A stretch of DNA of 64,000 nt, taken from IMG/VR virus record IMGVR_UViG_3300022924_000016, positions 77,324 to 141,323 of that record. One strand, given 5' to 3'. The notes under the pieces are model-generated. The model saw only the letters and a list, made by a program, of their open reading frames with translations. It was not told the origin of the DNA and did no database searches. Within the stretch, counting starts at the first letter, position 1. Each line of letters starts with the position of its first letter. The translations under genes and the position numbers were made by a program. The DNA is from a virus. Shown piece after piece: positions 5,601-23,327 of the stretch.

Positions 5601-5768
5601 AAAGTATGGCTCAATAACAGACCTGAGACTTTCACAGCAAGAACCCAGCCACAGGAGGGAAGGGATTTTACATACCTTTCACCGCAAGATTTTGTTAAAT
5701 TTCAGCAAAGTCAGAATTACAAGCAGTATAAGTCTGGATACAAGACTTCAAACATAGCTTCTCGATAA
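2616..5768 (+). CDS. Large Q/N-rich internal virion (ejection/cargo) protein
   Basis: 1050 aa, low complexity, NVEIEKNE...GETHEKGG segment, repeated xQxGG motifs, ATGA overlap with the upstream gene. Confidence 0.55.
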   Translation: MSFDNLKKFLTLPKMQFGGGFDPNNPMSRYDYTSPFQFPQSQQNPNSGMSVYSGYNPDLQYQQANPYYGMSVNSGYAPAQAPAPDINWLSDLTKTMSQNIQSAQNPVTPIAQNTSTVQTPPLTAYDDGSAPQLGAISSNYKSPQTNISNLNTQGGYQFNTSGNNVTAGQALDAQTNYNKQQAEQPLKLFNPFGGVDVSAALQYGFYNAGQGNGGQATLGFGKGLLGLARQGFSAYGAGKEQRNLMNQQNNQPIYNSTPLEKGGFVDYMQKGGSVSVGKFLSGKYITDSSDQNVEIEKNEFVLNAKDGQVQKAIGETHEKGGIKTNLPEGSQVLSDHTKIGAKNAKELSKELDIKVKAKNTFADVLDKYSKKIGVEKNIEEGEKLVNQTEETLKLEETDTKQINLDFIQQETARIEQEKEELNTQQQEAFKTIFDKQESQKGNFLQEGGETVATATQEEEINPNDIVVQVQQAVAQGAPIEEIVNNLLSMGYSEDEASQIIQASQSEQQPQMQEGGVAGEPGARIGDFLKSANLIAQSKGVEPPKLDLEKGDITKNWTELQNWFVKNAPEEVISYFDEQPITNKGMEILLKNNKTALKNLGIDTNRKPNSFSLEEKRAIQEAIPLDDKFILDQFADGKVDYRFPQVSANSLSSITPQNQAINASMVSPSGNGFQEQEMTAQATDNNTQQNSAQRGRNVIPMLPVLEGLTPSAALIPRADQVRFNRLEPTLRTPEASIAAINNQTNFVNQQAFQSNPNLAPFLTATNLGTTQQSVNKAIAETDAYNAEAVNRANTYNANVGDKEQLMNINLGQNYEQRLFKTIDNQEQAWSRYLVNKQLQNKQNWMDVNNLNLTNAMTPNYQTDGSNVYFSNPRDYSTRSEQDIQFDNWYRNATPQEQIAYRNSVISKKQDGGYIYEFEDGAQPMTDQQAREVAQATGFTEDFAREYFRQQGANQTPQYQQAPQRPRVNLETDMIADITSGTNRYTPNGGVIVGDYKKVWLNNRPETFTARTQPQEGRDFTYLSPQDFVKFQQSQNYKQYKSGYKTSNIASR

Positions 5769-5855: not shown

Positions 5856-8504
5856 ATGGCAAACTATACTTCCAAGGACATAACCCTAGCTCCCGTAACA
5901 ACGAGCATTAATCTGCCTCTGATACAGCAAGTATTGCAGGTAAAACAGGGTACGTACAATCAGGCGGATGCACAAGTCCAAGCAGGATTATCTTCTCTTG
6001 AAAACTTAAAACTTTTAAGACCGCAAGACACAGAATACCTAAACTCTAAGATTAGAGGTATGACGGCTTCTTTGGATAATATGCAGGATAAGGATTTATC
6101 TAATCCAAATGTAGCTTCAAATTTCTATTCCACTATAAAATCAGTAGCGAGAGACCCATTTGTAGTAGAGGCCGCATCAAATACAGTGAAGTATCAACAG
6201 TTTCAAGCACAGATGCAAGACATACAGAAGAAAAATCCTGATAAGTTCCATCAGATAAACTATCAGTTTGCTTTAGATAAGGCAGGATTAAACCAGTATA
6301 TGGAAGGAGCTACAAACTCTTTGGGCAGTTTCTCTTATCATAATTATTCCGATTATAATAAAAATCTTTTGGATAGGATGAAGACTTTGAAAGATGTCAG
6401 AGGCGACAGGGAAGTCCAAATACAAGGAAATGGAGTAAATGGCTATCCTGAAGGAACACTGATAACTAAAAAATTAAGTGGTTTAACACCTCAAGAAATT
6501 GTAGATTATGTTCCAGGCATGATGACTTCAGAAGATGATATGCAGATGAGGATAGAGGGTTGGTGGACAGGTAAGCAAAATCCGCAACAACTAGACTCAG
6601 AATTTTCGCAATACACGGAAAATAAAAAAGAACAGCTTGATTCAAGTATAAATCTATTAGAGACTAAGGTAAATAATAAGCAGAATACGGAAGAAGAAAG
6701 AGAAACAGCCAGACAGCAATTAAGGGCTTTCAGAGCGGAAAAAGAGAATTTCTTGAAAAATAGCGCAACGGCAACTTTAGAAGAGAAGGGATATTTTGTC
6801 AAAAAGAATGATTATGTAAAAGCATTGGCAACAAGTGCAGGAGCATCTGAGAGTGTAAGTATATCCGAAGACAAAGCTTACTTTGCACGTCAAAATCTAC
6901 AGTTAAAAACAGAAGAGCTAGATATAAAAAGAGCAGAGTTAGCACTAAAACAACAAAAAGCTGGAACTACAGGAGGTCTCTATGGCATGGAAGGTATTAG
7001 TGAATCGCCACTCACAGCAGAAACAGCCCCTAATATTGACCCGATAGAACAAGTTACAGAAAACTATAAATTAACACAAGGACAGCTTACAGAAAATATC
7101 TTAGATATATACAAATCTAACGCTACAGCAAGTGAAATAAAAGACCAATACTCGGCATCTATGAATGCTATGGGATACACGCCAGAGGGGAACTTGTTAA
7201 ATGCAAATAAACAGCCAACTATAGATAAGGCAACGGCTATGTCTAAAGCTTTTGAAGACTCAAAAATGTATTTATCTAATCCTGATAAAGCAGCGGAGAT
7301 TGTAAGATTGAAAACATTAGCTGATAATTCAGCCTTAGATTATAATAACACTATAGGCTCCGCTTCCAAAGAACTTTTTAACAGTGCTCCCCAAAAATAC
7401 ATTAGTGAATTTGTTGAAAAAATAAAAGCTTTGGAGATGGAAGATGACGGATTTATAACAGGATTATTCGGTATTGGAGGAGGTTCGGAAAGAGTACAGA
7501 ATTTAACAGCTGAAGCAAGAAAGTTCATAAATGAAGTAGGGGGAGAGAGAAATTTAAAGAGTATAGGAAGCAATAATGCGAGACTAGAAAAATTTAGAGA
7601 CCTTTATGGTAAACTTTCGCAAGAAAAAGAATATAATCTGAATTTTAGATTAGGGAATATGACGTTCGCTAGAGATGTGGAGGCAAAAGCAGGAGAACTT
7701 CTTAAATCTACAGGAGTGATGACTTCTTATGGAAGTGCCAATCAAGCAACTCTTAGTAATGAAAGTCAAAATCAAAGACTTATATCAATGATTCCTACAA
7801 CGGAAGAGAGTAGACCATTTGACCCAAAGAAAAAAATAACAGTATATCAAAGAATTGTAGATGGAAGCCCTTCATTTGTAGTAGAGCAAAATGTCGGTTT
7901 TAATGAGAAAATGGGACAGATTAAAAAAGCAACAGCTGTACTGACTCCTAAAATGGCAGGATATGAATTCCTAAGACAAAGCTTAGATATGAATGAATCT
8001 TCAAGAGGACTCAGTGCAGAAGTAGCAAAAGAAAAAATAAGTATTGCGAAAAATCCAGCATATATAAAAGATGACGGAAAGTACGCACCTAAAATTGCAG
8101 ATTACCTGTTAAAAAACACTCCTCCTAACTATATAGGAAAAGCATTTTTCGCAAACCCAGCAAATTATTTGACTAAAACTAATACGGAAGAGGCTTATTC
8201 AAATGTTTTAAGGAATAACTTTACTCCCGAACAAATACAGCAAGTTACAGAGCATATTTCAAGCCGTCTATCCCAATATAAAATTGATCTAGAACCCTTG
8301 GATGGAGAATGGTATATGTCTCTGGAAGATAAAGAAACAGGTGCAGATTATAGAGGTGGAAAATTAGGACAGAAAAATTTAGAAACTCAATTTTTAAACA
8401 TTGCTCAAAATTATCCTCATACAATAGTCTTAGACTTCTTTTTAAGAGACCTAGCTACAAACAATAAAAATGCATTTAATAGAATTATGAATAATGGCAG
8501 ATAA
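5856..8504 (+). CDS. Internal virion (ejection) protein, helical/coiled-coil
   Basis: 882-aa ORF in the large-protein operon; no catalytic motif recognised. Confidence 0.5.
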   Translation: MANYTSKDITLAPVTTSINLPLIQQVLQVKQGTYNQADAQVQAGLSSLENLKLLRPQDTEYLNSKIRGMTASLDNMQDKDLSNPNVASNFYSTIKSVARDPFVVEAASNTVKYQQFQAQMQDIQKKNPDKFHQINYQFALDKAGLNQYMEGATNSLGSFSYHNYSDYNKNLLDRMKTLKDVRGDREVQIQGNGVNGYPEGTLITKKLSGLTPQEIVDYVPGMMTSEDDMQMRIEGWWTGKQNPQQLDSEFSQYTENKKEQLDSSINLLETKVNNKQNTEEERETARQQLRAFRAEKENFLKNSATATLEEKGYFVKKNDYVKALATSAGASESVSISEDKAYFARQNLQLKTEELDIKRAELALKQQKAGTTGGLYGMEGISESPLTAETAPNIDPIEQVTENYKLTQGQLTENILDIYKSNATASEIKDQYSASMNAMGYTPEGNLLNANKQPTIDKATAMSKAFEDSKMYLSNPDKAAEIVRLKTLADNSALDYNNTIGSASKELFNSAPQKYISEFVEKIKALEMEDDGFITGLFGIGGGSERVQNLTAEARKFINEVGGERNLKSIGSNNARLEKFRDLYGKLSQEKEYNLNFRLGNMTFARDVEAKAGELLKSTGVMTSYGSANQATLSNESQNQRLISMIPTTEESRPFDPKKKITVYQRIVDGSPSFVVEQNVGFNEKMGQIKKATAVLTPKMAGYEFLRQSLDMNESSRGLSAEVAKEKISIAKNPAYIKDDGKYAPKIADYLLKNTPPNYIGKAFFANPANYLTKTNTEEAYSNVLRNNFTPEQIQQVTEHISSRLSQYKIDLEPLDGEWYMSLEDKETGADYRGGKLGQKNLETQFLNIAQNYPHTIVLDFFLRDLATNNKNAFNRIMNNGR

Positions 8505-11500
8505 CAACTTAAATGCGCTTATAGATAATAAAACTATTTCGCCAGAACTTCAGGCAGTTGAACAGGATATTAGAACTAGAGCAAGTACTCCTCAAATAGA
8601 CCCTTCTAAAACTAACGGAATTATAAGCAATATTAAAACCGATAATGACTATTTTTACAAGGCTCCTATTAACAGTCCTCAAAAGATAGCATTAGAGTCG
8701 AAAAATTACAATATAAATGATGCTTATGCTCAACTTAATGATGGTACCTACATAGCAAAATATGATACTTATAAAGAAGGAGCAAACAATAATGAGATTC
8801 ATGCACAAAATCAAGGAACAGGAGAAAAGTGGCTTAATGGCTTAGCTAAATTTGGAGGCAAAACTCTAAACGCAGTTATAGGCGGAACAGCAGGAGTTGT
8901 TTATGGAGCAGGGGCGGGAATAGCAGATTGGAAATTTGACTCTGTTTACGATAATAATTTTTCAAACTGGCTAGGAGATTTAGATACCAAAATGAACTAC
9001 AATCTTCCTAACTACTACACGCAACAGGAAACACAAAAAGGATTGGGAGGACAATTATTCACTTCTAATTTTTGGGCGGATAAAGTTCTAGGAGGATTGT
9101 CTTTTACAGCAGGAGCAATTGTATCAGAGGGTATATGGGCTTATGCAACAGGAGGAACTTCTCTAGCAACCACTACCGCAAGATGGTCTACAAGAACAGC
9201 GGGTATGGCAAGAATAGCTAGCGGGACTTCAAAGTTTTCAAGACTTTTAAAAAATTCACTCACAGTAGGAGAGGATGTAGCAAGAGTAGGTACGGGATTG
9301 GTAGATGATTCTATAAACGTGGGAAGAGCCGTAGCTTTTGGTAAGGCGGGAGATGCTTTAAACACTTTAAGATTTACAATGACTTCGGCAGGATATGAAG
9401 CCTCCGTTGAAGCCTTGCAGTATAAAAAAGAACAAGAGGAAAACTTTTATAGAAATTTTCAAGAAAAAAACGGAAGACAGCCCGATCAAGAAGAGATAAC
9501 AGCTTTTCAAGAAAATCTAAGTTCCTCTGCAAATGCAGTTTTTGGAGTGAATATGGCTTTGGTGGGAAGTTCTAATTTGGTAACTCTAGGAAGAGTATTC
9601 AATCTAAAATCACCTGTAAAAACAGGTTTTGGAGAGATGTACAACAGAGCCTTGTATGGAATAGGAAAAGCAACGCCTTCAAGACTCCAATCCATTAATA
9701 GAAGAATATTACCCTTTGTTCAAAATGCAGTAACTGAGGGACTTTATGAAGAAGGTGGTCAATCGATTACTTCAGCTACGGCAGGAAAATGGCTAGAACA
9801 TGCTTACGATACAAACAACACAAAAGACTCTTTTGATTTAGCAGGGGCTTTATATGAAAACATTTCTCACCAATATGGTTCAAAAGAAGGATGGGTTGAG
9901 AATGGAGTAGGTATAATCATTGGTCTTTTAGGAGAGGCTGGGACAGGAAATACAAGAGGAGGAATAAGCAGGCAAGTTCAAGAATTTGAGAACCGTTCAA
10001 AATTAAATGAAACTTATACTTCAAAAGCATTATCGGAGCATTTCTTGATGATGAACCGTATTAACGGGTTTAATAAACAATCAGAAGATGCGCAAAAAAG
10101 AGGCAATCTTACAGAAGCTAGAATAGCACAAGACGGAGTAATATTTTCACTTTTAAACAATCGTTACCAATTAGGAGATTCTGTTTCAGATGTAGGCTTA
10201 GATATTGAAAAAGCTTTGGGAACAGTTACGCAAGACCAGCTAACAGAAATGGGAGTAGAAACTGATTTAGACACTTGGAAACAAGAACAGTCAACAGCGT
10301 TCTCAGAAGTTGCAAAATCTTTCAAAAAGAACAGACAGTTTGCAGAATATATAATAGGAAGAAATCCTGTTGCGGGAATACAGGAATTAGAGTCAGTTAA
10401 CCAACTCAATGGAATTACGGACGAAAATGGAAACTCTCGAATAAATAATCAAGAAGCTCTTATACAAAGTCTAGCTTTTACAATGATGGGTGGTCAAAGA
10501 TCGCATACCACCATGAAGGAAGCTGTTCAAGAGATGTCTGAGATTTTAGATTATGAAAAAGTAAAGGCTTTAGATACAATATCTAGCTTAGAAACAGTAA
10601 CTCAAGAAAAAAGAAATCAAGTAAATATTGCTATAAACAGAAGCAATTCTTTAGAGGAGCAAAGAGGAAGACTTGTAGAACAGTTAAGAAATATTCAGGA
10701 AACCACGCAAGGGGATACTGACACAGGAACTAAAGTTTTGAGGTTATCTGACAGGCTTGCAAAACTTACAAACCTGATTGATTCTAATAATACAGAATTA
10801 CAGCAACTTGCAGATGAAGTAAATCTAAATAACAAAACTTTAGAACAGACCACAGGCGTAAACCTAAATCAAGGTTTAGATATTCAGAGTATCAGTGTAG
10901 AGGACTTAAAAAACCTTGATTCAAATATCAAAAATTTAGGGTCTGTAATGGATGCTATAAAAGCTTCTAATCCTGAAAATTCTGCCAGACTTGAAGCAAT
11001 TTTAGAAGAGTACAAGAACTCTAGAAAAACATTTGGAGCTTATCAGTCAACTGTATTAGCTTTCAGGGATGGAAAAGTAAACATTGATAACATCAATACT
11101 TTAGTTGGGCGCAAAGTCTTAAAAAAGAACAAAAACTTAGATTCGGCAACAAAAGAGTGGCTGTCAGAAATTTTAGGAAATTACTCAAAACAAGCTGTAG
11201 ACGCTTTAGATGAGTTAACTAAAATTAACAACAGAACCACTGTTATTTCAAACGAGTCTATAGTAGATAAGAGAAGAAGAGGTGATACTTTATCAGAAGA
11301 GGAACAAACGTACTACAACGAAAATAAGACGGAGATAGATACTTTTATGAAAAGAGAGCCTATACTTCCAGTTGTACCCTTACCAACAGCTAAAACTAAA
11401 CTTCAATACCTGAGAGAAAGACTTGCTAATTTAGTTTCTAGGTCTAATAACTCCTTGACTTTTATTGGGACTTCAACAGACGAATTTCTTTTAGAAAAAC

Positions 11501-13746
11501 CAACACAAGCGGAAGTAGCAGAATACCAAAATCTATTAAGAGGAGAAACGGGGGAAAAAGCACAACTTTATCAAAAACTTGACAATTTATATGAAACACT
11601 TTTATCCAATGGGAACAGTGAATCAGAAGCAGAAAGACTAGCTTTAGAATCGCTAACAGAGCAAGAAAGAAATCTTTTAAGACAGAGAAGTCCGAAAAGA
11701 AGAGAAGTGGAAAACTCTTCTGAATTAATAGTAGGCCAAAGGGTAAGCACTCTGACCGACCAAGGAACGGTTACTTCAATTGATGGAGAATTGGTAACTA
11801 TTGACTTAGACCAAAAAGGAACATTGACCGCAAACCCAAGACTTGTAGAAATTTTTACCGAGCCTTCAGTAGTAAACGTAGATAGATTAGAGCTGTTAAG
11901 GGAAAAATTATCAAATTGGAAAGTTTTAGACAGTTTCATAAATGAGGAAGGACTAACAATGGCTGACCTTGCAGAATTGATTCAACAGCAACAGCAGAAC
12001 ATTTCAGAGCAAGAAACCATAACTGAAATCACAGAAGATGATTCTTATGCTATGACTCAAGAATCTCAAGCAGGAGAAAAACTTGATGATTATACTCTGG
12101 CACAAAATGTCACAGGAAATGCCACAATAAAGAGAAATAAAGACGGCTCTGTGACTTTGCATCACATATCAGCACAATCTCTGGTAAATATCATAGGGGA
12201 GCCTTTCCAAGCTACAAGAAAAGGCAAGCCTATTGATATATCGGAAATCGCAATAGGCGATATAGTTACGACAGAAAGTGGATTAATGTTTTCAGTAGAG
12301 TCAGGAAACATCTTGAAAACGAGGAGTGAAGCATTTGATAACATCCCTCTTTTAGTAGTAAGAAGTGCCTCTACAAGCTGGACTTATGCAGATTTATACT
12401 ATTTTAACGGTTCGGAGTATGTAAAGAAACCTTCAGACTTTTTTGAAGATATCCAAGCAGATGAGATTTATAATCTTGAACAAGGCGCGCCTATAAGATT
12501 TGAAATTGACAGGCAGGACAGTTACACAAAACAGCTTTTAGATAAATACAAAAAATCACCCACGGAAGAAAATCGAAAAGCTTTAACAGACGGTATTAAA
12601 ATTTATTTAGTTTCAAAGGGTAGAAGAATTTCAACTTTAAAAGGAGAAAGAGGCGCATCACCTGATAATTTCAAGCTTTTAAGAGAAAAGGCTTTTGAAT
12701 TAGCTATACAGGACAGCTATGAAGCAGACCTCCAAGCAACTTCAACAGTTTCGGCAGTATTTTTAGGGAGCCCTCAATTTTTCATTTCAGAAGACGGGCA
12801 GTTAGAATCAAGACCATTCACAGAAACTTCATTAGATAAAGTTTTGACTAAAGGGTATATTTTAAATGGTGAAGTCGTAACATCAGAAGACCTACCACAA
12901 GTAAATACTTCCTACGTATCTAAGATTTCAAGAAAATACCCTCAAAGAAAAATGCCCTTGGTGGTTGTAAAAAGAGGTGAAAATTACGTAGCTTTGCCAA
13001 TATTTTTGAATAAATCACCTTTAGGGCAAAGAGGATTAGACATGGTGGAGAATGCCATAGAAACAGCCACGAGTCCAATAGAAGTTGCAAAGAACTTGAA
13101 TGCACTGATTAACCAAGAAGGTATCAGAACTGAAAAGGTACTACCGCAAGAAGTTACAGATGAAAATCTTGAAAGAATCAGAACAGCTTTTCAAGAACAT
13201 TTAATTTTCACAACAGCAGATGAAATAGCTTCACAAGATTATAACAAATCTAATCTTTTAGTGGATGCTCAGATGTATATTGACGCAGATAATCTAGAAC
13301 AGGTAATCAATGCTCCAAAAGTAAGAATAGATATTCAAAATATGCTTTTCAATCAAGAAGCAACCTTTGATACATCTGATGTCAAAACTTCGGTGGAAAA
13401 TGAATTAGATACTTTAGCAAAAGACCTTTATAACGATTTCATAAGAAATGCTTCCGCAACTTACGTAAATTCCAAAGGAGATATCATAGAAAATTCCTAT
13501 ACGGATGCCTTTGACGAAGAAAGTATGATGGAAGGGAGTTCACACCTTGATAAACTTCACAACATACGAATTTTAAGAGAAGCTTTCAAAGTGGATTTCT
13601 CTAAAAATAAGATTTTGAGGGATGCTGTAGGAAACGACAAGATTGAAAGAATAAAAATTCTTTTCGGTATTTTAGATAACATCAACAAACAAGTAAAGCC
13701 TAAAGAAGATATTCTGAAATCGGGCAATAACAACACTAAATGTTAA
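8494..13746 (+). CDS. Giant ejection protein with N-terminal Gly/Ala-rich hydrophobic segments; ends in Cys
   Basis: 1750 aa; AVIGGTAGVVYGAGAGIA and VLGGLSFTAGAIVS hydrophobic stretches; coiled coils; C-terminus ...NNTKC. Confidence 0.55.
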   Translation: MADNNLNALIDNKTISPELQAVEQDIRTRASTPQIDPSKTNGIISNIKTDNDYFYKAPINSPQKIALESKNYNINDAYAQLNDGTYIAKYDTYKEGANNNEIHAQNQGTGEKWLNGLAKFGGKTLNAVIGGTAGVVYGAGAGIADWKFDSVYDNNFSNWLGDLDTKMNYNLPNYYTQQETQKGLGGQLFTSNFWADKVLGGLSFTAGAIVSEGIWAYATGGTSLATTTARWSTRTAGMARIASGTSKFSRLLKNSLTVGEDVARVGTGLVDDSINVGRAVAFGKAGDALNTLRFTMTSAGYEASVEALQYKKEQEENFYRNFQEKNGRQPDQEEITAFQENLSSSANAVFGVNMALVGSSNLVTLGRVFNLKSPVKTGFGEMYNRALYGIGKATPSRLQSINRRILPFVQNAVTEGLYEEGGQSITSATAGKWLEHAYDTNNTKDSFDLAGALYENISHQYGSKEGWVENGVGIIIGLLGEAGTGNTRGGISRQVQEFENRSKLNETYTSKALSEHFLMMNRINGFNKQSEDAQKRGNLTEARIAQDGVIFSLLNNRYQLGDSVSDVGLDIEKALGTVTQDQLTEMGVETDLDTWKQEQSTAFSEVAKSFKKNRQFAEYIIGRNPVAGIQELESVNQLNGITDENGNSRINNQEALIQSLAFTMMGGQRSHTTMKEAVQEMSEILDYEKVKALDTISSLETVTQEKRNQVNIAINRSNSLEEQRGRLVEQLRNIQETTQGDTDTGTKVLRLSDRLAKLTNLIDSNNTELQQLADEVNLNNKTLEQTTGVNLNQGLDIQSISVEDLKNLDSNIKNLGSVMDAIKASNPENSARLEAILEEYKNSRKTFGAYQSTVLAFRDGKVNIDNINTLVGRKVLKKNKNLDSATKEWLSEILGNYSKQAVDALDELTKINNRTTVISNESIVDKRRRGDTLSEEEQTYYNENKTEIDTFMKREPILPVVPLPTAKTKLQYLRERLANLVSRSNNSLTFIGTSTDEFLLEKPTQAEVAEYQNLLRGETGEKAQLYQKLDNLYETLLSNGNSESEAERLALESLTEQERNLLRQRSPKRREVENSSELIVGQRVSTLTDQGTVTSIDGELVTIDLDQKGTLTANPRLVEIFTEPSVVNVDRLELLREKLSNWKVLDSFINEEGLTMADLAELIQQQQQNISEQETITEITEDDSYAMTQESQAGEKLDDYTLAQNVTGNATIKRNKDGSVTLHHISAQSLVNIIGEPFQATRKGKPIDISEIAIGDIVTTESGLMFSVESGNILKTRSEAFDNIPLLVVRSASTSWTYADLYYFNGSEYVKKPSDFFEDIQADEIYNLEQGAPIRFEIDRQDSYTKQLLDKYKKSPTEENRKALTDGIKIYLVSKGRRISTLKGERGASPDNFKLLREKAFELAIQDSYEADLQATSTVSAVFLGSPQFFISEDGQLESRPFTETSLDKVLTKGYILNGEVVTSEDLPQVNTSYVSKISRKYPQRKMPLVVVKRGENYVALPIFLNKSPLGQRGLDMVENAIETATSPIEVAKNLNALINQEGIRTEKVLPQEVTDENLERIRTAFQEHLIFTTADEIASQDYNKSNLLVDAQMYIDADNLEQVINAPKVRIDIQNMLFNQEATFDTSDVKTSVENELDTLAKDLYNDFIRNASATYVNSKGDIIENSYTDAFDEESMMEGSSHLDKLHNIRILREAFKVDFSKNKILRDAVGNDKIERIKILFGILDNINKQVKPKEDILKSGNNNTKC

Positions 13747-13750
13747 TAAA

Positions 13751-16048
13751 TTGAGCTGTAATATAATAAGAGAAAATGGAGAAATAAGAGTAGTGACGGA
13801 TCAAGATACTCCGTCATTGCTTTTCCAGGAGCTAAAAGAAAAATTCACCCAAGAAGAAGCTTTAGAAATCTATAAGGCTTCTAAATCAGAGGCTTTTGAA
13901 ACTGTCAACAGAGCTAAGAATGCTTTATTATACTCAGTGAACCAAACTGATGTAAGACTTTCTAGGCAAATCAATGGAAACTCAATCTCCTATATTCCGA
14001 CAATCAGAGGAAAAAGAATAGGAACTTTGAGGATAAAAGGGGACAGGGTAGATATGATAACTATTTATGACGCTTTCAAAGGCAAAGGATACGGAAAGAG
14101 TCTTTACAAGCAAGTGGCTAAAGATTTATTTCAGAGAGGAGTACAGCTAAAAAGCGATAATGCTTCAAGTCAAGATGATTTGAATGTGTGGGAGTCCCTT
14201 GTGAGAGATAATCTTGCCGAGCAGACACCGGACGGCAGATATCAGTTCCTACTCCAAAACAGCTACCCAAACGGCGAACCCTCAATGCAAAGCGTCTTAG
14301 AATTCCTAAGAAATCAAAACCGCACACAAAGGGAACTTGACACAGAGGAAAGAATAGAACTTAAAAATTTATCTTTAGGATTTCAAGGAGATTTAAAAGC
14401 GGAGATGAACAGGGTATTTTATGACCAAGAAAATTTTTTTACAATAGTCCCGCAAAAAATGCAATCTTTATATTCGCAATATGAAATTGACAGGATTTTG
14501 AAATCACCAAGCCTGCAAAATCAAATAAAAGAAAGTTTAGAAGCATTTCAAAATACGGAATTTGATTTAGTTACAGAACAAGAGGTGCCACAAGAACAGT
14601 TAGTAAAATCAAGCACAATAGGAAAGTTTGGAAAAGCCCTTTATGAGAATCCAAACCGTCTAAAACAAGATTTGATGGAGGAAATTGCTGGCGTAGAGGA
14701 AGACATGTTTGAAGAAAATCCTTTTATAACTTTAGAAGAATCACAAGAATTTGTAAAAGCAAGAGTTTTAGCAGATGTAGACGGAACGATAGTAGAGCCT
14801 AATCTAGGAGACCGTTTAGCGATTTCGGCTACAATCTTAAAGAATCCTTATAAGGCTGTTTCTGCAATTGTCAAAATTACAAATATCTCAGATGAAACTC
14901 TTCTAGAAAATCCACAAGAAACTTATAAAGCTCTGAGCAACATTGAAAACGAAGCCTTGAAAATGGGGATAGATGTCATAGGAATAAAAGACCAAGCAGA
15001 TAATCCAACTCTGAAACCTTTCTTAAATGCTTTAGGGGGTGTTATGGAAAATCCCATAGAAGAAAACTTGGCAACATTTTCTAAACTCTACTCAGAATTC
15101 TTTCCAAGGCAAATCCAAGAAACAAAAGCAATAAGACAGCCTAATGACAGAGATTATATCTACCTAAGAACAGCTTTGAGTGAGGGTGAAGTTTTCAATC
15201 AAATAGGGGCGATAAAAAAAGCGGAAAACGTTTATGTTCAAGTTAATGATAAAACTTTAGAAGAACTCTATGAAATAGCTTCATATTACAACCCAAGCCT
15301 CACACAACAGGAGAACCAAAGACAGGCTCTGAGAATAGAATCGCCCGAAAGAGAAACAGCAGAAAAAATAAATTTATTTAAAACTATTTTAGGTTTCGAG
15401 GGTGTAAATGAGGGAATTAGTGAGGGTATGAACGAAACTGCTTTCACAGGAAACTACGAATACCTTACAAATGATTTCGTGGCAGAATTCAATATAAAAT
15501 CCCTAAGAGAAAAGAAAAAGAATTCTCCAATGTGGCTCAATTTCTATTCAAATTTTGAAATTAATGAGCAAGGTATAAATTTAAAATATACAGACGACTC
15601 AACACTGTCAACAGTAGAAGAGTTAGCTGATGAAAATTTAAGGCAGTACTCTTTGATTTCAAAACAAATGCCGAATCTGAACCAAACTACTTTAGATGAG
15701 AATCCAGATATATCTCAAAAAGAAAGAGATTTTTACGTGAACAATCCACAGATGGCACCTCTGATGCAAAGTCCCACAATAGTAGATTCAGAAACCCTAA
15801 TATCGGATAGTCAAGAAAGGTTCACTAAAAGACAAGATGGAAGTTTATGGGAAAATGTGTTCACTCAAAATGGCAAAAGCTTATTTAAAAGACAAATGGT
15901 AAACAGATCGCAATACAATACCTTTGGAAACCCAAAACCACAATTTAATGAATATGACTTTGACTTGAAAGCAAGCATGTCAGATAATTCAAATGTTAAA
16001 GATTCCCTAAAAGCAAAAAATATATTAAAAGAAAGTTTTGATTGTTAA
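13751..16048 (+). CDS. Ejection protein with GNAT acetyltransferase domain; starts MSC, ends in Cys
   Basis: TTG start; FKGKGYGKSLY acetyl-CoA motif followed by LKSD...VWESL; C-terminus ...ESFDC. Confidence 0.6.
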   Translation: MSCNIIRENGEIRVVTDQDTPSLLFQELKEKFTQEEALEIYKASKSEAFETVNRAKNALLYSVNQTDVRLSRQINGNSISYIPTIRGKRIGTLRIKGDRVDMITIYDAFKGKGYGKSLYKQVAKDLFQRGVQLKSDNASSQDDLNVWESLVRDNLAEQTPDGRYQFLLQNSYPNGEPSMQSVLEFLRNQNRTQRELDTEERIELKNLSLGFQGDLKAEMNRVFYDQENFFTIVPQKMQSLYSQYEIDRILKSPSLQNQIKESLEAFQNTEFDLVTEQEVPQEQLVKSSTIGKFGKALYENPNRLKQDLMEEIAGVEEDMFEENPFITLEESQEFVKARVLADVDGTIVEPNLGDRLAISATILKNPYKAVSAIVKITNISDETLLENPQETYKALSNIENEALKMGIDVIGIKDQADNPTLKPFLNALGGVMENPIEENLATFSKLYSEFFPRQIQETKAIRQPNDRDYIYLRTALSEGEVFNQIGAIKKAENVYVQVNDKTLEELYEIASYYNPSLTQQENQRQALRIESPERETAEKINLFKTILGFEGVNEGISEGMNETAFTGNYEYLTNDFVAEFNIKSLREKKKNSPMWLNFYSNFEINEQGINLKYTDDSTLSTVEELADENLRQYSLISKQMPNLNQTTLDENPDISQKERDFYVNNPQMAPLMQSPTIVDSETLISDSQERFTKRQDGSLWENVFTQNGKSLFKRQMVNRSQYNTFGNPKPQFNEYDFDLKASMSDNSNVKDSLKAKNILKESFDC

Positions 16049-16066
16049 TAAAGTTTACTATATTTG
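16037..16066 (+). promoter_or_regulatory. Bacteroidota sigma-70 promoter for the methyltransferase
   Basis: TTTG 16037-16040 and TATATTTG 16059-16066. Confidence 0.65.
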
Positions 16067-16082
16067 CTGAAAATATAAAAAT

Positions 16083-17003
16083 ATGGATAGAGGAATAAAT
16101 GTTTTTGGAGCTTTTGATGGAATGAGTAATGGTCAAATAGCTTTAGAAAAACAAGGAATTAAAGTAAATAAATATTATGCTTCTGAAATTGAAAAAGAGC
16201 CTATAGTTATAACGCAAAAAAATTATCCAAACACAATTCAATTAGGAAGTATTACCGAAATAGAGAATATTGATTGGCCAGCAAGGAAGATTGATCTATT
16301 TATAGGAGGAAGCCCTTGTCAAAATTTCAGTTTTGCAGGCTCTGCACAAGGATTGAGACAAGATAATATAGAAATTACAAATCTAGAAAAGTATAATAAA
16401 TTAAAACAAGAGAATTTTGTCTTTGAGGGACAATCTTATTTGTTTTGGGAATATGTTAGACTTTTAAAAGAGGTTCAAAAAGTGAATCCTCAAGTAAAGT
16501 TCCTCTTAGAAAATGTCAAGATGGCAAAAAAATGGGAGAATGTAATTACAGAAGCTTTGGGTGTAAAACCAAAAGAAATAAATTCAAAACACTTTTGTGC
16601 CCAAAATCGACCTAGACTATATTGGACTAACATACAAATAGACAGTTTACCAAATAATGGCGATGTTATAAAAGACATACTAGAAAAAGATGCAGATTTT
16701 AATTTCAACTATGCAGGATGGATGCTAAATAAATGGGGTGAAAAAAGAAGATTGGATCAATTCTTTAATGTAGATAATAAAGCTAGTTGTTTAACTGCAA
16801 ACATGGCAAAAGGTCAAAAACCAAGCTACTGTGTAAATGACGAAAAAGCAATACATAAATTTACAGTTAATGAATGCGAAAGGCTCCAAACAGTACCCTT
16901 TGATTACACGAAAGGTGTTTCTAATGGAGCAAGATATAAAATGCTCGGTAACGGTTGGACAGTAGATGTCATAGCCCATATATTTAAAAACTTAAAACAA
17001 TAA
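16083..17003 (+). CDS. dcm: DNA (cytosine-5)-methyltransferase
   Basis: Motif I FDGMS, IV GGSPCQ, VI LENV, VIII QNRPRLYW, ECERLQ, X LGNGW. Confidence 0.93.
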   Translation: MDRGINVFGAFDGMSNGQIALEKQGIKVNKYYASEIEKEPIVITQKNYPNTIQLGSITEIENIDWPARKIDLFIGGSPCQNFSFAGSAQGLRQDNIEITNLEKYNKLKQENFVFEGQSYLFWEYVRLLKEVQKVNPQVKFLLENVKMAKKWENVITEALGVKPKEINSKHFCAQNRPRLYWTNIQIDSLPNNGDVIKDILEKDADFNFNYAGWMLNKWGEKRRLDQFFNVDNKASCLTANMAKGQKPSYCVNDEKAIHKFTVNECERLQTVPFDYTKGVSNGARYKMLGNGWTVDVIAHIFKNLKQ

Positions 17004-17004
17004 A

Positions 17005-20000
17005 ATGGCTTGTGAAATAATTTATAAGAATGGTAGACAAGTTGGAGTAAACGCTCCTGATGGCAGACCTTCTTTAGTTTTCAATCAAATACTCAATATC
17101 CCACATATCCAAGACTTTCAAGAAGCTCTAAAAGGGTATACAAATCTTTTAGCGGATAATAACAATGAAGAATCTCCAATCAGCTTTCAAAACCAAGGTC
17201 AAGAATTTCAAACTTTAAAAGAGGCTCTTAAAAACAGCCAACCAAATTCTGAAATCCAAGTAGTTACAAACGGAAAGTCTTTTATGACAATTGACACTAC
17301 AATAAATCCTCAGACTCGTTCAGGACTTTTAAATTCCCTAATCAAAGAAGACATTCTGACGGGAAATTCTTTTTTAGACGTTGACGGCGCAAAAGTCTTA
17401 GAAGTAACAGGAAACAACGAACAGGAAAAAGCGGTCTACGCCGATGTAGCCAGAACAGTTTCAAAACGATATAAAGGTGCATTTTCAGCCTTAGTTGGAC
17501 AGGATAATAATATTACTTTCAGAGAAAGACAGGAAGTTCCCAAATCAGAAACTTTTACCCAGCTTACTCAAAGATTTGATGAACCAACAGCAGTTTTTAT
17601 CAAGACTTTAGAAGAAATAAGTTTGGAGACTAATGCAAATAATTCTGCTTTAGAAGAGATTCAAATCATTCCTGAGAATCAGCTACAAGAAAAACTATTA
17701 CAGCTACTAAACAAGTTAGGCGTAAAGACTACATCCATTGAAAAGTGGGCGGAAAAATACGCTCAAAAGAATGGTTATGAACCATCGGCAAAAGCTCTAG
17801 CAGATTTGGCAAATAACATCGTAGCCTTTAAAGATGGTATTATCACGCAAGCAGATTTAACAGAGGAAGTGAGTCACTTTATTATTGCAACTTTAGATGA
17901 GGAGCAGATAGCAAACCAAAAAAGAAATGTACATAGAACTAAAGAGTGGGCGGAATTTGCAGAACAATACTTCGAAATCTACTCAGAGACTTTAGAGGGA
18001 GAAGGCTTAGAAGATGCTGTCAGAGAAGAAATTTTAGGAAAGGTTTTAGCTAATTCACTTTTAGATAATTTTGCAAGAGAAGGTGAAACTACTTTGGAAG
18101 GCGGTATTGTTGCAACTTTAAGAAACTTCTTCCAAGACTTCTTTAATAGAGTTTATGACTTCTTTCAGCCAAACTATCAAACCCAACTAGAAACATTCAC
18201 AGAACAAGTTTATAGAGACCTTATGAATGACTCCTTGGACGTAGATGTAAGAAACAAGGAGAACAAGTCTTATACGCTCTATAATTCAGCAGGACGTACA
18301 GCTTTAGCCCAAACTATTCAGAAGTCTTATGAAACACTTTTGAATCAGCAATATGCTCTAAGAAATTCTTCGGCGAATAAAAATACCTTAAACAAATTAA
18401 AGCAGACAATTGCACTTACAGATGAAGCTTCCTTGAAAAATTCAACTCTACAATTAGTAGCAGTTGCAAATTCTCAAGCAAATTCACTTTTGAAATCTTT
18501 AGAAACCGCCGATAAAAATTCAAGACACTTCACGTCAGAAGAAAATGGAGTATTTCAATCAACAGTTTCAAGACTTGCTCCGATGCTAAGACAAATCAGA
18601 GAAAGCATAAATGACAAGGCTATTGCAAAACAGATCGATGATGTCCTGCAAAAGATTTCTACAATTGAAGGAAGAGTTCCCGCAACAAATACAAAGGCAA
18701 GAGATTTGATTGTTGAGAGAGTTATTAGAAAGAACAATATGACTCCTGAACAGGCTAATAAATACCGTGAGTATATAGACAACATTTCAAGAACAGCAGA
18801 AGCAGATACAGGCTGGTTGCATGCCCACTTGGGAGGATTAATCAATTCAAGAGACGGACTTTTAAATTTGGCGGGAGAAATTATAGAGAGAACACAATAT
18901 CAAGAAAGAACAACACATCAAAACCAAACTAAGCCTTTTTTAAACCGTTTAGAAGCTTTAGGACTGACAGAAAGCCAAATTCCCACAACACTAAAAAAGC
19001 TTATCTATAATGGCGGAATAATAAACGAAACAGATCCTCAAAAAGTATTGGAAGTCGATAATACAGAAAAAGCTAGAATTTTGTCTGTAATTTTAAGAGA
19101 GCCTCTAACAAAAGAAACAGTTCAAGAAAAGATTGATTCTATGCAAAGCGAATATGACTCCTTGCAAAGAGAACTCACAGCAAATAAAGAATTAAGCCAA
19201 GAAGATATTGACAAGAAAACGCAAAACAGGGACGAGATATCAGGACAGCTTGCTAACTTGGAAAAAGAGTTTAGAAAGACTTTTACTCAAAGATTCGAGT
19301 CTTATTTTGATCCAAAATACTTAGAGAAACTTCAAAACTTCTCTATTGTGACAAACGGCGTAACAATTGACAGAACTTCTATTCCAGATGATGTCTTACA
19401 GTTGGATAAATTGTATCGTTCTCAAATCGGGGAAATAAAAAAACAAGGAGAACTTACTTCAAGTGAAATCGCGGAAATAAAAAATTTAACAAAACAAAAA
19501 CTCCAAGAGGCAAATCCAAGGTATTCTGATGGAAAATTGAAAAAAGGAGTTTTGGAAGTCTATGATAGAGAGTTAAAAAAGTTTACTTATTTCTTAGATG
19601 CCTCGGAAGACTTATCAGATTTAGATTTTTCAGAAGCTCAAAAAGTCGTAGGATTGCAAAACCTGATGCTTCTAAATTCAGAATTCTATAAAGGCAATTC
19701 AAACTCACAAGGAATCACTCAGAAGTTTTTAGATGAATTAAACAGCTTGAGTACAGAGCAAGAAAAATTTGACTTCTTGAACAATAATGCAACAACAGCT
19801 TTCACTCAAGATTTCTGGGACAATTTCGATCCTAACAACTCTTTGGTGGCAAGACTTTTGGAGGTGGGTTCGCCCGAAGCTTTAGAATTCGCGCAAAACA
19901 TCAGAGAACAGCAGTCAATAATCTCTACAATAATTCGCGGGAATAAAAGTATGTCAAATCCTTCGGAGGTAGACGTATTTGATATGAATGACATAGAAAT

Positions 20001-22569
20001 GTCAGCTGTCAGGGATGCCCAATCTATTTTGGAAGTTCAGACCGCCGAGGCAAGAAACATTCTAGAAGAACAAGAAACAACAGAAATTCAATCAGTTTCA
20101 ACAGTTAATGAAAGCTACAGAAAAGATTTACAATCTAATGGAATCACTTCAAACAGTCCGCAAGAAATTGATTTTATATTAAAACACGTAACTTCAAACG
20201 GTAGAAGCAGTATAGAATCTTTAAGAAGAAACTTGCAGAGATTGCAAAAAGGAGAGTCTGTCATTATGACTGATTTTTTAAGGAACTTAACTGATGGAAG
20301 AACAGACTATGACAATGTCTTATCAGAATTTGCGAGAAGAAAACTTTTACCATATTATAAAAGAACAGAACCGCAAGGATTTACGGAAGCCTATGAAGAA
20401 CTAAAAAGAAATGTCTCTGAAAACCAATCGGGAGCAGTTTTAGATTTTATTGAAAGCGGTATAGTAGAAGTAAAACCAAGTTGGAGCTATTATGACGCAA
20501 TGGCAAATGTAAACCCTAAATGGATTGAAAATCGTGACGCGCAAAGAGACCAATACACAGAAGCCTATAAAAACTCTGTAAGGAATGATGAATACTACCA
20601 AAGATATGGAATAGACGAGCAAGGAAACGCCACACAAAACATTCAAGAGTTCGAAGCCAGAAAAATACTTCTAGAATATAACGACCAAAGTTTGGAAAAT
20701 TATGGTATCCAAGCAACACATGACAGATACCAATTACCGCAGTTTTTAAGGAGCGCGACAAGAAGATTAACAGACGGCTCAAATAAACTAAAATCCCTAA
20801 AAGAAATCGCCTCAGATATGACAGGTATCAGAGAGGATGAAGCAGATTTAGGACAGGATGTATCAGGAAATCTCGCCAAAAAAGGAGACAGCCTATTATC
20901 GGTTCCAACTTACGGGGTAAGAAAATTGAAAGACCAAACAGATGTAACAGACGAACTTTTATTGTCTTATGCAATGTTCAACCAACAGTCAGCATTATAC
21001 AAAGCAAGAAGAGAAAACATCTCAGATATGCTGGTATTGGAAGATTTCATATTGTCAAAAGAAAGAGATTATCCAGGCAAAAAAGCGGAAGCAACAAACA
21101 CCTATAAAATGTTCAATTCATTTCTAAAATCAAATTTCTATGGCGTAAAAGAAACATTCAGCCAAGAAGTAACAGTTTTAGGGAAAAAAGTGGATTTAGG
21201 AAAACTGGCAAGAACTTTCAACAGCTGGGTAAGATTCTCAAATTTAGCGGGTGTGACAGTACCATTGACTTCGGCTCTGCAAGGAAAAACTCAAGAATTT
21301 TTAGAGGTGGCTGTAGGTGAAGTTTTAGATAGAACGGCTTACAAGGAGGCGCAGAAAGAATTTGCAAGGAAAGGAAGTCAGCAGGCGGGAGAAATTTTAA
21401 AATATAATGGGAAAGCTGAGATTTCAGTCTATGGTGAGCGTTTTGGATTATACAATCTGACAGAAAGATTTGAAAACTCTTACATTGGAAGAGCGGGGAG
21501 AGGTATTTTGAAATCATCGTCACTTTTGCATAGTTTGGGCAACTTTCCTGTAACAACGACCGTGATGCTTTCTGTAATTTACGACTATAGAGTTTATGGA
21601 AACGAAGTTATTACATATAGACAGTTTAAGGAGATTAATAATGGAAAAGACGACAGATTACTTTGGGAAAAACAACCTCTATTCAAAGATTTAATCCCTG
21701 TAAAAGATGGTGTTATTGCGCCTAATTACAAAGGTATCTCTGAACAGTTAAACATAAGTGAAGAGGAAGCTGTTGAAAAAACAGACTTGATTTTAGAAGC
21801 AATTAATGCTAGAACGGCTTCGGCGGTTCAGAGAGTCGATTCTCAGATAAAAGAAAGTGACAAGTCAATTGCGGCTAGGGACAGTCGATCTAACTTTTTC
21901 TTACTTCATCAAGGATGGTTTTTGGTTGCGCTACAAAATAAGACAAAAAACTATCACTATAACATTTCGGAGGGGACATATCAGGAAGGGAACCTAAGAA
22001 CTACCTTAAATTTAATAAACAATCTTGCCCAAAATGTTTTAAAACCAAAAGAATTAAAAAGAATTTGGCAAGAAAATATGGCAGATGAGTTATCAAGAAG
22101 AAATCTTAGACGTACGGCATATGAGATAGCTTTAGCCAATATATTAGCAATTGCGGCAATACTTTTAGCCAACATGGCAGATGAACCCGACGATCCAGCA
22201 TACCTACTGACAATGAGTGATTACTTTCTTACAAGAGTAGCGGTTGAGCAGATTTCAGGAACAGTTGCTCTACCATTAAATGTTGACCAAATGCTTTCAG
22301 ACCCTTTGATTATTAAAACTAAATTTGAAGACTTGATGAAAATAGATGAACTATTTAGTTCTGACTTGGTATCAACAGGAAGTTTCGCAAATGAGACAAA
22401 AAGATACCGTTGGCTATCTAAAAACTTACCTTTTGTTAAAGACTATCACAGGTTTTCTGACCTATCCAAAGCCCGTGATACCTATGCGTACTTTTCAGTG
22501 GAAAAACCAAATTTGTTTAGGAATTGGGCTTGGTTATCAAATTTAGCAGAAAACGAATCAGAAGAATAA
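17005..22569 (+). CDS. Giant ejection protein with degenerate zincin-like metallopeptidase segment
   Basis: 1854 aa; starts MAC; LTEEVSH...EEILGK; hydrophobic helix near the C-terminus; no RNAP DxDGD motif seen. Confidence 0.55.
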   Translation: MACEIIYKNGRQVGVNAPDGRPSLVFNQILNIPHIQDFQEALKGYTNLLADNNNEESPISFQNQGQEFQTLKEALKNSQPNSEIQVVTNGKSFMTIDTTINPQTRSGLLNSLIKEDILTGNSFLDVDGAKVLEVTGNNEQEKAVYADVARTVSKRYKGAFSALVGQDNNITFRERQEVPKSETFTQLTQRFDEPTAVFIKTLEEISLETNANNSALEEIQIIPENQLQEKLLQLLNKLGVKTTSIEKWAEKYAQKNGYEPSAKALADLANNIVAFKDGIITQADLTEEVSHFIIATLDEEQIANQKRNVHRTKEWAEFAEQYFEIYSETLEGEGLEDAVREEILGKVLANSLLDNFAREGETTLEGGIVATLRNFFQDFFNRVYDFFQPNYQTQLETFTEQVYRDLMNDSLDVDVRNKENKSYTLYNSAGRTALAQTIQKSYETLLNQQYALRNSSANKNTLNKLKQTIALTDEASLKNSTLQLVAVANSQANSLLKSLETADKNSRHFTSEENGVFQSTVSRLAPMLRQIRESINDKAIAKQIDDVLQKISTIEGRVPATNTKARDLIVERVIRKNNMTPEQANKYREYIDNISRTAEADTGWLHAHLGGLINSRDGLLNLAGEIIERTQYQERTTHQNQTKPFLNRLEALGLTESQIPTTLKKLIYNGGIINETDPQKVLEVDNTEKARILSVILREPLTKETVQEKIDSMQSEYDSLQRELTANKELSQEDIDKKTQNRDEISGQLANLEKEFRKTFTQRFESYFDPKYLEKLQNFSIVTNGVTIDRTSIPDDVLQLDKLYRSQIGEIKKQGELTSSEIAEIKNLTKQKLQEANPRYSDGKLKKGVLEVYDRELKKFTYFLDASEDLSDLDFSEAQKVVGLQNLMLLNSEFYKGNSNSQGITQKFLDELNSLSTEQEKFDFLNNNATTAFTQDFWDNFDPNNSLVARLLEVGSPEALEFAQNIREQQSIISTIIRGNKSMSNPSEVDVFDMNDIEMSAVRDAQSILEVQTAEARNILEEQETTEIQSVSTVNESYRKDLQSNGITSNSPQEIDFILKHVTSNGRSSIESLRRNLQRLQKGESVIMTDFLRNLTDGRTDYDNVLSEFARRKLLPYYKRTEPQGFTEAYEELKRNVSENQSGAVLDFIESGIVEVKPSWSYYDAMANVNPKWIENRDAQRDQYTEAYKNSVRNDEYYQRYGIDEQGNATQNIQEFEARKILLEYNDQSLENYGIQATHDRYQLPQFLRSATRRLTDGSNKLKSLKEIASDMTGIREDEADLGQDVSGNLAKKGDSLLSVPTYGVRKLKDQTDVTDELLLSYAMFNQQSALYKARRENISDMLVLEDFILSKERDYPGKKAEATNTYKMFNSFLKSNFYGVKETFSQEVTVLGKKVDLGKLARTFNSWVRFSNLAGVTVPLTSALQGKTQEFLEVAVGEVLDRTAYKEAQKEFARKGSQQAGEILKYNGKAEISVYGERFGLYNLTERFENSYIGRAGRGILKSSSLLHSLGNFPVTTTVMLSVIYDYRVYGNEVITYRQFKEINNGKDDRLLWEKQPLFKDLIPVKDGVIAPNYKGISEQLNISEEEAVEKTDLILEAINARTASAVQRVDSQIKESDKSIAARDSRSNFFLLHQGWFLVALQNKTKNYHYNISEGTYQEGNLRTTLNLINNLAQNVLKPKELKRIWQENMADELSRRNLRRTAYEIALANILAIAAILLANMADEPDDPAYLLTMSDYFLTRVAVEQISGTVALPLNVDQMLSDPLIIKTKFEDLMKIDELFSSDLVSTGSFANETKRYRWLSKNLPFVKDYHRFSDLSKARDTYAYFSVEKPNLFRNWAWLSNLAENESEE

Positions 22570-23327
22570 TGGCAATAAAAAGATCAGATAGAGTAGGAGA
22601 AAAATTCATAACTAGGCAGGGATACTCAGGCGAAATAGTAAGTTATACAAATTCTTATGTTTCAACAGTTAAGTTATCAGATGGCACTTTTATTGATAAT
22701 GTAGCCTATGAGAGAATAAGTGACGGATGTCTTAAAAACCCTAATCATAGAAATGCTTTAGGTATTGGGTTCCAAGGACAGGGTAAATATACTTTTACAC
22801 AATATCCTGAAATAGAACAAAAATGGAGATCAATGATATCTAGATGTTATTCAGAAGCAGTTCATAAAAGACAACCTGCTTATATTGGGTGTTCTGTCTC
22901 AGAAGAATGGCATAATTTCCAAGTTTTTGCCGAATGGTATGAAAATAACTATAATCCTGAGTATATGAATTCAAGTTGGCATTTAGATAAGGATATTATT
23001 TGCAAAGATTGTAAAACTTACTCATCAGAAAATTGTGCTTTCATACCTCGTGAAATCAACAACTTATTTTTAAAATCTGCCAAAGTAGATAATAATTGCC
23101 CAAGAGGAGTGTCTAAGAAAAAACAAGGAGGGAAGTATCACATTAATTTATCTCTAAAGGTAACTAAAGGTTTCAAAGGATATTTCATTACACCCGAAGA
23201 AGCTTTTAAAGTATTCAAAGACATGAAAGAGCAACATATAAAAGAAGTCGCCGACAAATGGAAAGACCTAATCGATCCAAGAGTTTACGAAGCACTCTAT
23301 AATTATAGAGTAGAAATAACAGATTAA
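22569..23327 (+). CDS. HNH-like homing endonuclease with AP2-like C-terminal domain
   Basis: WRSMISRCY, GCSVSEEWHNFQ.FAEW, LDKDII, YSSENC.FIP..IN. ATG at 22569 overlaps the upstream TAA and is preferred to the annotated TTG. Confidence 0.75.
   Translation: MAIKRSDRVGEKFITRQGYSGEIVSYTNSYVSTVKLSDGTFIDNVAYERISDGCLKNPNHRNALGIGFQGQGKYTFTQYPEIEQKWRSMISRCYSEAVHKRQPAYIGCSVSEEWHNFQVFAEWYENNYNPEYMNSSWHLDKDIICKDCKTYSSENCAFIPREINNLFLKSAKVDNNCPRGVSKKKQGGKYHINLSLKVTKGFKGYFITPEEAFKVFKDMKEQHIKEVADKWKDLIDPRVYEALYNYRVEITD

Follow-up and report, generated by a model that had tools for sequence, protein, structure and literature searches.

How podophages pack megadalton amounts of protein and then pass them out along a narrow tail has yet to be explained. 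In the cyanophage A4, cryo-electron microscopy (cryo-EM) of the pre-ejectosome resolved a disulfide bond between Cys1715 of gp27, which lies in a C-terminal helix, and Cys5 of gp26 (PMC12002296, PNAS 2025). Both proteins are carried inside the capsid and ejected. The A-4L gene for gp27 (1717 aa) lies directly upstream of that for gp26 (1114 aa), and neither protein has any other cysteine; at about 25% identity, Pf-WMP4, Pf-WMP3, TR020, and LPP-1 retain the Cys pair. Among A4 and its homologues in the Saffermanviridae, the sole cysteine lies 2 to 3 residues from the C-terminal end of the upstream protein and at position 5 of the downstream protein. Here, we examine a 64,000-nucleotide stretch of viral DNA (positions 77,324 to 141,323 of IMG/VR record IMGVR_UViG_3300022924_000016; hereafter, the window), part of a phage genome that is a single 141-kb contig. 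Three giant proteins encoded in the window, which we call B, C, and E, share the features of the A4 pair: the upstream protein has its sole cysteine near the C-terminal end, and the only other cysteine lies near the N-terminal end of the downstream protein.

In the one case with a structure, A4, this sequence signature predicts a real disulfide. The A4 paper reports the bond and mentions neither the cysteine-free signature, its conservation, nor a general rule (PMC12002296), and our literature search for a stated general terminal-cysteine rule returned that paper only, with its single bond. Cysteine suppression as such is a published trait of the ejection proteins of N4-like phages, where it has been ascribed to passage through the oxidising periplasm (PMC11445570). 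The ejection proteins of Schitoviridae (N4, DEV) resemble B, C, and E in being giant and almost free of cysteine; they differ in that cysteine is lacking altogether, and neither conserved terminal cysteines nor interprotein bonds are reported for them (PMC11445570). From the comparisons described below, we propose, with a probability of about 0.72, that B, C, and E form a covalently linked, head-to-tail chain in the virion, most likely held together by disulfides.

RESULTS

Cysteines of B, C, and E lie only at facing protein ends

Protein B, the first link (1750 aa; positions 8494 to 13746, + strand; PHROG family phrog_32390), ends in ...NNTKC, and its sole cysteine is this last residue, Cys1750 (codon 13741 to 13743). 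Protein C, the middle link (765 aa; 13751 to 16048, +), has cysteines at residue 3 (13757 to 13759) and at its last residue, 765 (16043 to 16045), and nowhere else. The sole cysteine of protein E, the last link (1854 aa; 17005 to 22569, +; phrog_37651, 1e-141), is Cys3 (17011 to 17013). The reading from which we started, made from the sequence only, had claimed that these terminal residues are the only cysteines of the three proteins, and a cysteine count of the translations agrees. The same sequence-only reading took the three genes to be consecutive, which, strictly, they are not. Only 4 nt lie between the B stop and the start of C, a TTG codon read as Met; this start is supported because homologues of C begin with M-[AS]-C at the equivalent place. 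C and E, next in transcription order, are separated by a single inserted gene for a C5 cytosine DNA methylase (16083 to 17003, +; Pfam PF00145, 4e-30), whose product has an ordinary cysteine content, with 5 internal cysteines, and stands outside the chain.

The cysteine-poor block extends further upstream than had been recognized: the reading was right for B, C, and E, and the three proteins encoded upstream of B (847 to 2619, 2616 to 5768, and 5856 to 8504, all +; 590, 1050, and 882 aa) likewise contain 0 cysteines. Thus, six virion proteins in a row, totaling 6891 aa, contain 4 cysteines, all of them terminal and all belonging to B, C, and E. The other 47 open reading frames (ORFs) of the window contain 167 cysteines in 9614 aa (1.74%), a frequency at which about 120 would be expected in the six-protein block. 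Chance is excluded as the source of this pattern.

Terminal cysteines are retained across relatives

By its own terms, the sequence-only reading would have been refuted by a lack of terminal-cysteine conservation in homologues, and it was not. We found conservation to be near absolute, with terminal cysteines retained in about 100 proteins at identities of 20 to 30%. All 7 homologues of C (41 to 95% identity) have two cysteines, one at position 3 and one as the last residue, and no others, and all 10 homologues of B (24 to 97% identity) have exactly one, located 1 to 4 residues from the C-terminal end. In the E family, a single cysteine at position 3 to 6 is found in 41 of 43 homologues (30 to 94% identity; 1.8 to 3.1 thousand aa), and one of the exceptions is a miscalled start. 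Two 145-kb Cellulophaga phages, phi4:1 and phi17:2 (genus Lightbulbvirus; about 27 to 32% identity), are the sole relatives in culture; they keep the terminal-cysteine-only pattern at about 27% identity. Their gp038-gp037-gp035 (phi4:1) and gp039-gp038-gp036 (phi17:2) are true homologues of B-C-E in the same gene order: in phi17:2, the sole cysteine of gp039 is its last residue, gp038 has cysteines at 4 and 516 of 517 residues, and the sole cysteine of gp036 is at position 3. They differ from the window proteins in that the middle link is 517 aa long and lacks the type-1 N-terminal module described below, and in that the gene before the last link is a 119-aa nonstructural gene and not a methylase.

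To extend the comparison to uncultured phages, an E-family profile was used to collect 46 IMG/VR loci, of which 41 were left after removal of duplicates and correction of start calls (most apparent internal cysteines in relatives are start-codon miscalls, e.g., MSLKC, MAKTC, and MSNC). Loci are designated below by L numbers. We defined a chain-type protein as one with at most 2 internal cysteines and at least one terminal cysteine. By this definition, the 41 nonredundant loci encode 108 chain-type proteins, whose 179,214 aa include 4 internal cysteines (0.0022%), compared with 1.78% cysteine in the other ORFs of the same loci, a depletion of about 800-fold. Cysteines are present on both sides of all 64 junctions between consecutive chain-type proteins, at positions 3 to 7 on the N-terminal side and −1 to −4 on the C-terminal side. 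The chains consist of 2, 3, or 4 proteins, the first with a cysteine at its C-terminal end only, the last at its N-terminal end only, and the middle ones at both; the polarity that had been noted in the window, with no N-terminal cysteine in the first protein and no C-terminal cysteine in the last, is therefore a property of the related loci as well.

A three-link pattern of the same kind is present in the Crassvirales, a group whose cargo genes the sequence-only reading had singled out for inspection. In the crAss-like phage phi14:2, the sole cysteine of g067 is its last residue, g066 has cysteines only at 3 and 2179, and the sole cysteine of g065 is at position 3. These three proteins were found in virions by tandem mass spectrometry (MS/MS). 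Residues 1356 to 1742 of E (21070 to 22230, +) have a homologue in the C-terminal domain of g065, as judged by the E-family hidden Markov model (HMM; E value, 1.1e-24) and by phmmer with E alone (7e-7). B and C have no homologue in phi14:2 (C-family HMM against g066; E value, 0.04), and the type-1 N-terminal module was not detected there. The middle links also differ: g066 is a two-barrel virion RNA polymerase, whereas that of the window is a 765-aa protein with a GNAT-like domain.

The relationship to A4 is more remote. An HMM comparison of B and E with A4 gp27 and gp26 gave a best E value of 0.026, and hhalign gave probabilities of 0.5% and 0.2%, so no homology was found. A4 also differs in having a single link between two proteins, in being a small 42-kb T7-like phage, and in that the 48-aa N-terminal module was not detected in it. 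The system of the window would work like the A4 pair while lying outside the A4 protein families. Such a tether has been seen only once to date, in the form of a single bond, and the B-C-E chain would be a modular variant with several links.

The cysteines are part of a conserved N-terminal module and a C-terminal tail

C and E begin with a module of about 48 aa (13751 to 13894 in C and 17005 to 17148 in E, both +). The alignment defines it as M-[AS]-C followed by a beta-hairpin, an invariant serine, L-[FY], and helices ending in A-L-x-[IL]-Y; the serine is the sole invariant residue besides Cys3. In AlphaFold2 (AF2) models, which give the module with confidence in both proteins, the hairpin spans residues 5 to 15 and the helices residues 23 to 56 of C (predicted local distance difference test [pLDDT] score, 72 to 86), and residues 4 to 16 and 24 to 49 of E (pLDDT, 77 to 91). 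A module shared by C and E had been suggested from the sequence. Pairwise BLASTP supports it weakly (E value, 0.045), but a 49-position profile, run against 1.84 billion representative proteins, establishes the module as real: it matched 956 clusters at E values of ≤1e-3 and 152 at ≤1e-10, almost always at residues 1 to 48. Among the 83 listed module-bearing representatives of at least 400 aa (124,518 aa in all), 81 have an N-terminal cysteine, 25 also have a C-terminal one, and internal cysteines number 11. The profile also gave 12 internal partial matches (positions 5 to 22, the hairpin) in P0120, a protein of 1683 aa with no cysteine, which looks like an unrelated beta-hairpin repeat protein and not a chain member.

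The opposing partner in this junction class would be a tail. The last 35 residues of C (731 to 765; 15941 to 16045, +) are modeled by AF2 as floppy (pLDDT, 32 to 38), with a short helix at residues 752 to 762 right before Cys765, and the tails of the C family share the motif [ED]-x-F-[DNE]-C. A disordered tail ending in a short helix is as would be expected for a tail that needs a partner, and the model is only suggestive of this. In other junction classes, the type of N-terminal module co-varies with the type of tail on the preceding protein: for example, ...IPDCV is followed by MAKCSLPY..., and ...NCKL or ...KKCN by MAC.Y.Y...EEL.

New cysteine pairs appear where a link is split

Gene splits within the C family offer a further view of the pattern. 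In L004, C is split at about HMM position 553 to 571; the two products are 607 and 425 aa long, and their genes are separated by one for a GIY-YIG homing endonuclease. In L015 and L010, C is split at about position 320 to 330. At both split sites, each new end has a new cysteine together with extra tail or N-terminal sequence, and unsplit C proteins have no cysteine at either position. Conversely, the C link is absent from L023 and L024, and there the C-terminal cysteine of B directly faces Cys3 of E. This behavior is what would be expected if a Cys pair replaces the lost peptide bond, and it is hard to explain otherwise.

Genes inserted at junctions in relatives include GIY-YIG, TnpB, N6/N4 methylase, and ferritin-like genes, and the chain junctions appear to be favored landing sites for mobile genes. 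Precise placement between two links is seen for GIY-YIG genes and for a TnpB (IS605 OrfB) gene at L004 11238 to 11927, L045 5511 to 6209, L049 8499 to 9248, and L004 8134 to 9246. In L002, a relative 92% identical, a 940-bp insertion carrying a 172-aa ORF of unknown function lies between B and C, where the window has 4 nt. In the window itself, an HNH endonuclease gene (22524 to 23327) starts within the 3′ end of the E gene, which it overlaps by 46 nt. A subgroup of distant relatives (L041, 8347 to 8838; also L042 and L043) has a gene for a 164-aa ferritin-like protein of the Dps type between two links; an iron/redox-type protein at a Cys junction is curious. A “cysteine dioxygenase” annotation is found about 6 kb downstream of the chain in L054 (23931 to 24359; phi4:1 gp026) and L001 (33840 to 34268; phi17:2 gp026).

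B, C, and E are probable virion cargo

The homologues of B, C, and E in phi4:1 were detected in virions by MS/MS, and the small gene product encoded between them was not (GenBank notes). We read B, C, and E as virion cargo of a marine, Lightbulbvirus-like podophage of flavobacteria. Their ejection into the host is probable, a reading we favor because of the phi4:1 virion MS/MS notes, the adjacent lytic transglycosylase internal virion protein, and the cysteine suppression. The transglycosylase is the 590-aa product of the first of the three cysteine-free upstream genes, whose N-terminal domain matches phrog_4067 (transglycosylase, 9e-24) and which also matches phrog_342 (“internal virion protein with endolysin domain”). 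The next two encode virion structural proteins (1050 aa, phrog_36695, 1.6e-51; 882 aa, phrog_32131, 1.7e-42). The 882-aa protein is a homologue of phi17:2 gp040 and of phi4:1 gp039, the latter found in virions by MS/MS (GenBank note). None of the three is a chain link.

A Pfam search gave no match for B, C, or E of the window, whereas relatives of C and E are giant multi-domain proteins that carry LPD23, ART-PolyVal, GNAT, poly(A) polymerase, and HD domains. LPD23 and ART-PolyVal are domains of polyvalent proteins, and the searchable literature on polyvalent proteins does not mention terminal cysteines. A GNAT-like acetyltransferase fold, the one domain of this kind seen in the window's own chain proteins, is predicted in C at about residues 60 to 166 (13928 to 14248, +) from an AF2 model whose top Foldseek matches in the PDB are all GNAT enzymes (probability, 1.0; E value, only 4e-3). 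Pfam Acetyltransf_1 matches the corresponding part of larger middle links in relatives. This insert is missing from several C homologues and is kept in some relatives only. The HMMs of the B, C, and E families had no meaningful match among all PDB sequences, including the phi14:2 polymerase, and Foldseek of a model of the N-terminal part of E (about 600 aa) found no fold match in the PDB (best E value, 0.06). A virion RNA polymerase was also considered for the large middle links of relatives, including one of 2584 aa that matched no PDB sequence; it was not detected there, and what these links proved to contain were domains of polyvalent proteins. The region had no megablast match in a phage collection, and a search for related loci with the C protein alone gave one close relative only.

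Two other observations were made in the window. A 667-aa DNA polymerase ORF (32611 to 34614) matches only the C-terminal part of PHROG 17 (positions 671 to 1232 of 1445) and is followed by a LAGLIDADG endonuclease gene (34815 to 35543); the polymerase gene may be in pieces. The product of 54679 to 55395 (238 aa) contains 22 cysteines (9.2%), has a weak, sub-threshold Pfam match to Stc1, and is probably rich in zinc ribbons.

DISCUSSION

The results presented above led us to consider how terminal cysteines could organize the cargo. We envision two bonds, one from Cys1750 (B) to Cys3 (C) and one from Cys765 (C) to Cys3 (E), with the floppy C-terminal tail of one protein docking on the 48-aa N-terminal module of the next and thereby bringing the two thiols together. 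The disulfides would form after the packed particle has passed from the reducing cytoplasm into oxidising surroundings. With every cysteine placed at most a few residues from a terminus and none elsewhere, the result would be a strictly linear polymer of some 4370 residues, unbranched and free of loops, that could thread through the portal and tail channel as a single chain. A linear polymer is the only disulfide-linked form able to pass a narrow channel as a thread; internal cysteines would give branches or scrambled bonds, which would account for their having been purged. More speculatively, the thread would fix the stoichiometry and exit order of the cargo, and reduction in the host cytoplasm would free the separate proteins; both ordered exit and release by reduction are plausible. 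Thus, of the scheme in the sequence-only reading, linear pairing of C-terminal with N-terminal cysteines has strong, if indirect, support from conservation, the new pairs at split sites, and the A4 structure, while the disulfide chemistry in this phage, ordered packaging and ejection, and cytoplasmic reduction are steps that we infer.

Pairing of the termini could in principle involve some other chemistry, such as a metal ion, a thioether, or an unknown enzyme-made bond. Sequence data speak to which termini pair and not to the chemistry of the link, and virions are assembled in a reducing cytoplasm, both of which leave room for such a link. We nevertheless consider it unlikely: two thiols are too few for the usual Zn or Fe site, and the only invariant residue that the N-terminal module could add is a serine; no candidate ligase was seen adjoining the chain genes; and the sole solved case with this signature, A4, is a disulfide. 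Bonds might instead be homotypic or intramolecular, producing B-B and E-E dimers and rings or polymers of C. A protein with a single cysteine can only dimerize with itself, one with a cysteine at each end could cyclize, and equal numbers of N- and C-terminal cysteines are also compatible with this arrangement. However, it predicts neither the polarity seen in 41 loci, nor a matched new Cys pair at each split site, nor the co-variation of tails with modules, and the A4 bond is heterotypic; we therefore give it only a slim chance.

It is still less probable that the pairing is illusory and that the two kinds of terminal cysteine have unrelated jobs, for example as an N-end nucleophile, a lipidation site, or a Hint/intein-like residue. 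A cysteine just after the start does resemble those of N-terminal nucleophile (Ntn) enzymes, and intein block A also starts with a cysteine followed by a beta strand. Yet the N-terminal module, about 50 aa long, is modeled as a hairpin and helices, which is neither a Hint nor an Ntn fold, there are no Pfam matches and no signal peptide or lipobox, and unrelated jobs would not yield matched counts, polarity, and new pairs at split sites. Specifically, a split intein or Hint domain was rejected since such a domain would be expected to span about 130 aa, with blocks A and B after the N-terminal cysteine, and to have a partner ending in Asn, whereas the module has about 50 aa and the upstream proteins end with Cys. 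Ntn-hydrolase and lipoprotein readings of the N-terminal cysteine were also rejected, because fold and length do not fit and the motifs are lacking. Finally, ejection proteins might simply be poor in cysteine, a known tendency (PMC11445570), with terminal cysteines arising by chance or as annotation artifacts. Given the retention of terminal cysteines at low identity, the depletion of internal ones, and the frequency of N-terminal cysteines in the long module-bearing representatives (81/83), we regard this explanation as refuted.

Several points weigh against a disulfide-linked thread. The figure of 64/64 junctions is partly true by construction, since only proteins already recognized as chain-type were counted, and it does not represent 64 independent events because related loci share ancestry. 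At two distant loci, L037 and L050, an E-like protein with an N-terminal cysteine is preceded by a giant protein without a C-terminal one; perhaps the partner cysteine is supplied by a gene located elsewhere, or perhaps the rule no longer holds there. These are the most distant loci of the set (IMG/VR 3300017774_003070 and 3300025133_000073), and their giant upstream protein has 1 to 2 internal cysteines. Particles assemble in a reducing cytoplasm, so the bonds must await lysis or need an unknown oxidant. The A4 precedent is an analogy because no homology between its proteins and B or E could be detected, and the case for this phage and for Lightbulbvirus-like phages is built from sequence comparison together with that analogy. 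Taken together, conservation, polarity, the paired cysteines at split sites, the co-variation of tails and modules, and the A4 structure nonetheless appear to support a linear head-to-tail chain strongly, most likely one held by disulfides.

A broader possibility, which we offer tentatively, is that the Cys tail and Cys module make up a portable, redox-cleavable connector that is general, or convergent, in podophage ejection (Saffermanviridae, Crassvirales, and Lightbulbvirus-like phages). With such a connector, giant cargo genes could be cut, inserted into, and reshuffled, for instance when a homing endonuclease gene lands in them, and their products would still be delivered as one linear polymer. 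In function, the connector would be the disulfide counterpart of a split intein.

A signature that predicts covalent end-to-end tethers would turn the single A4 observation into a rule readable from genomes, one that can be put to a direct test in Cellulophaga phages already in culture (phi4:1, phi17:2, and phi14:2). Such a rule would explain why ejection proteins are purged of cysteine yet retain it at their extreme ends, and it would predict the order and stoichiometry of the cargo. The terminal-cysteine signature would also serve as a simple marker for injected proteins in uncultured phages, including the abundant crAss-like phages of the gut.

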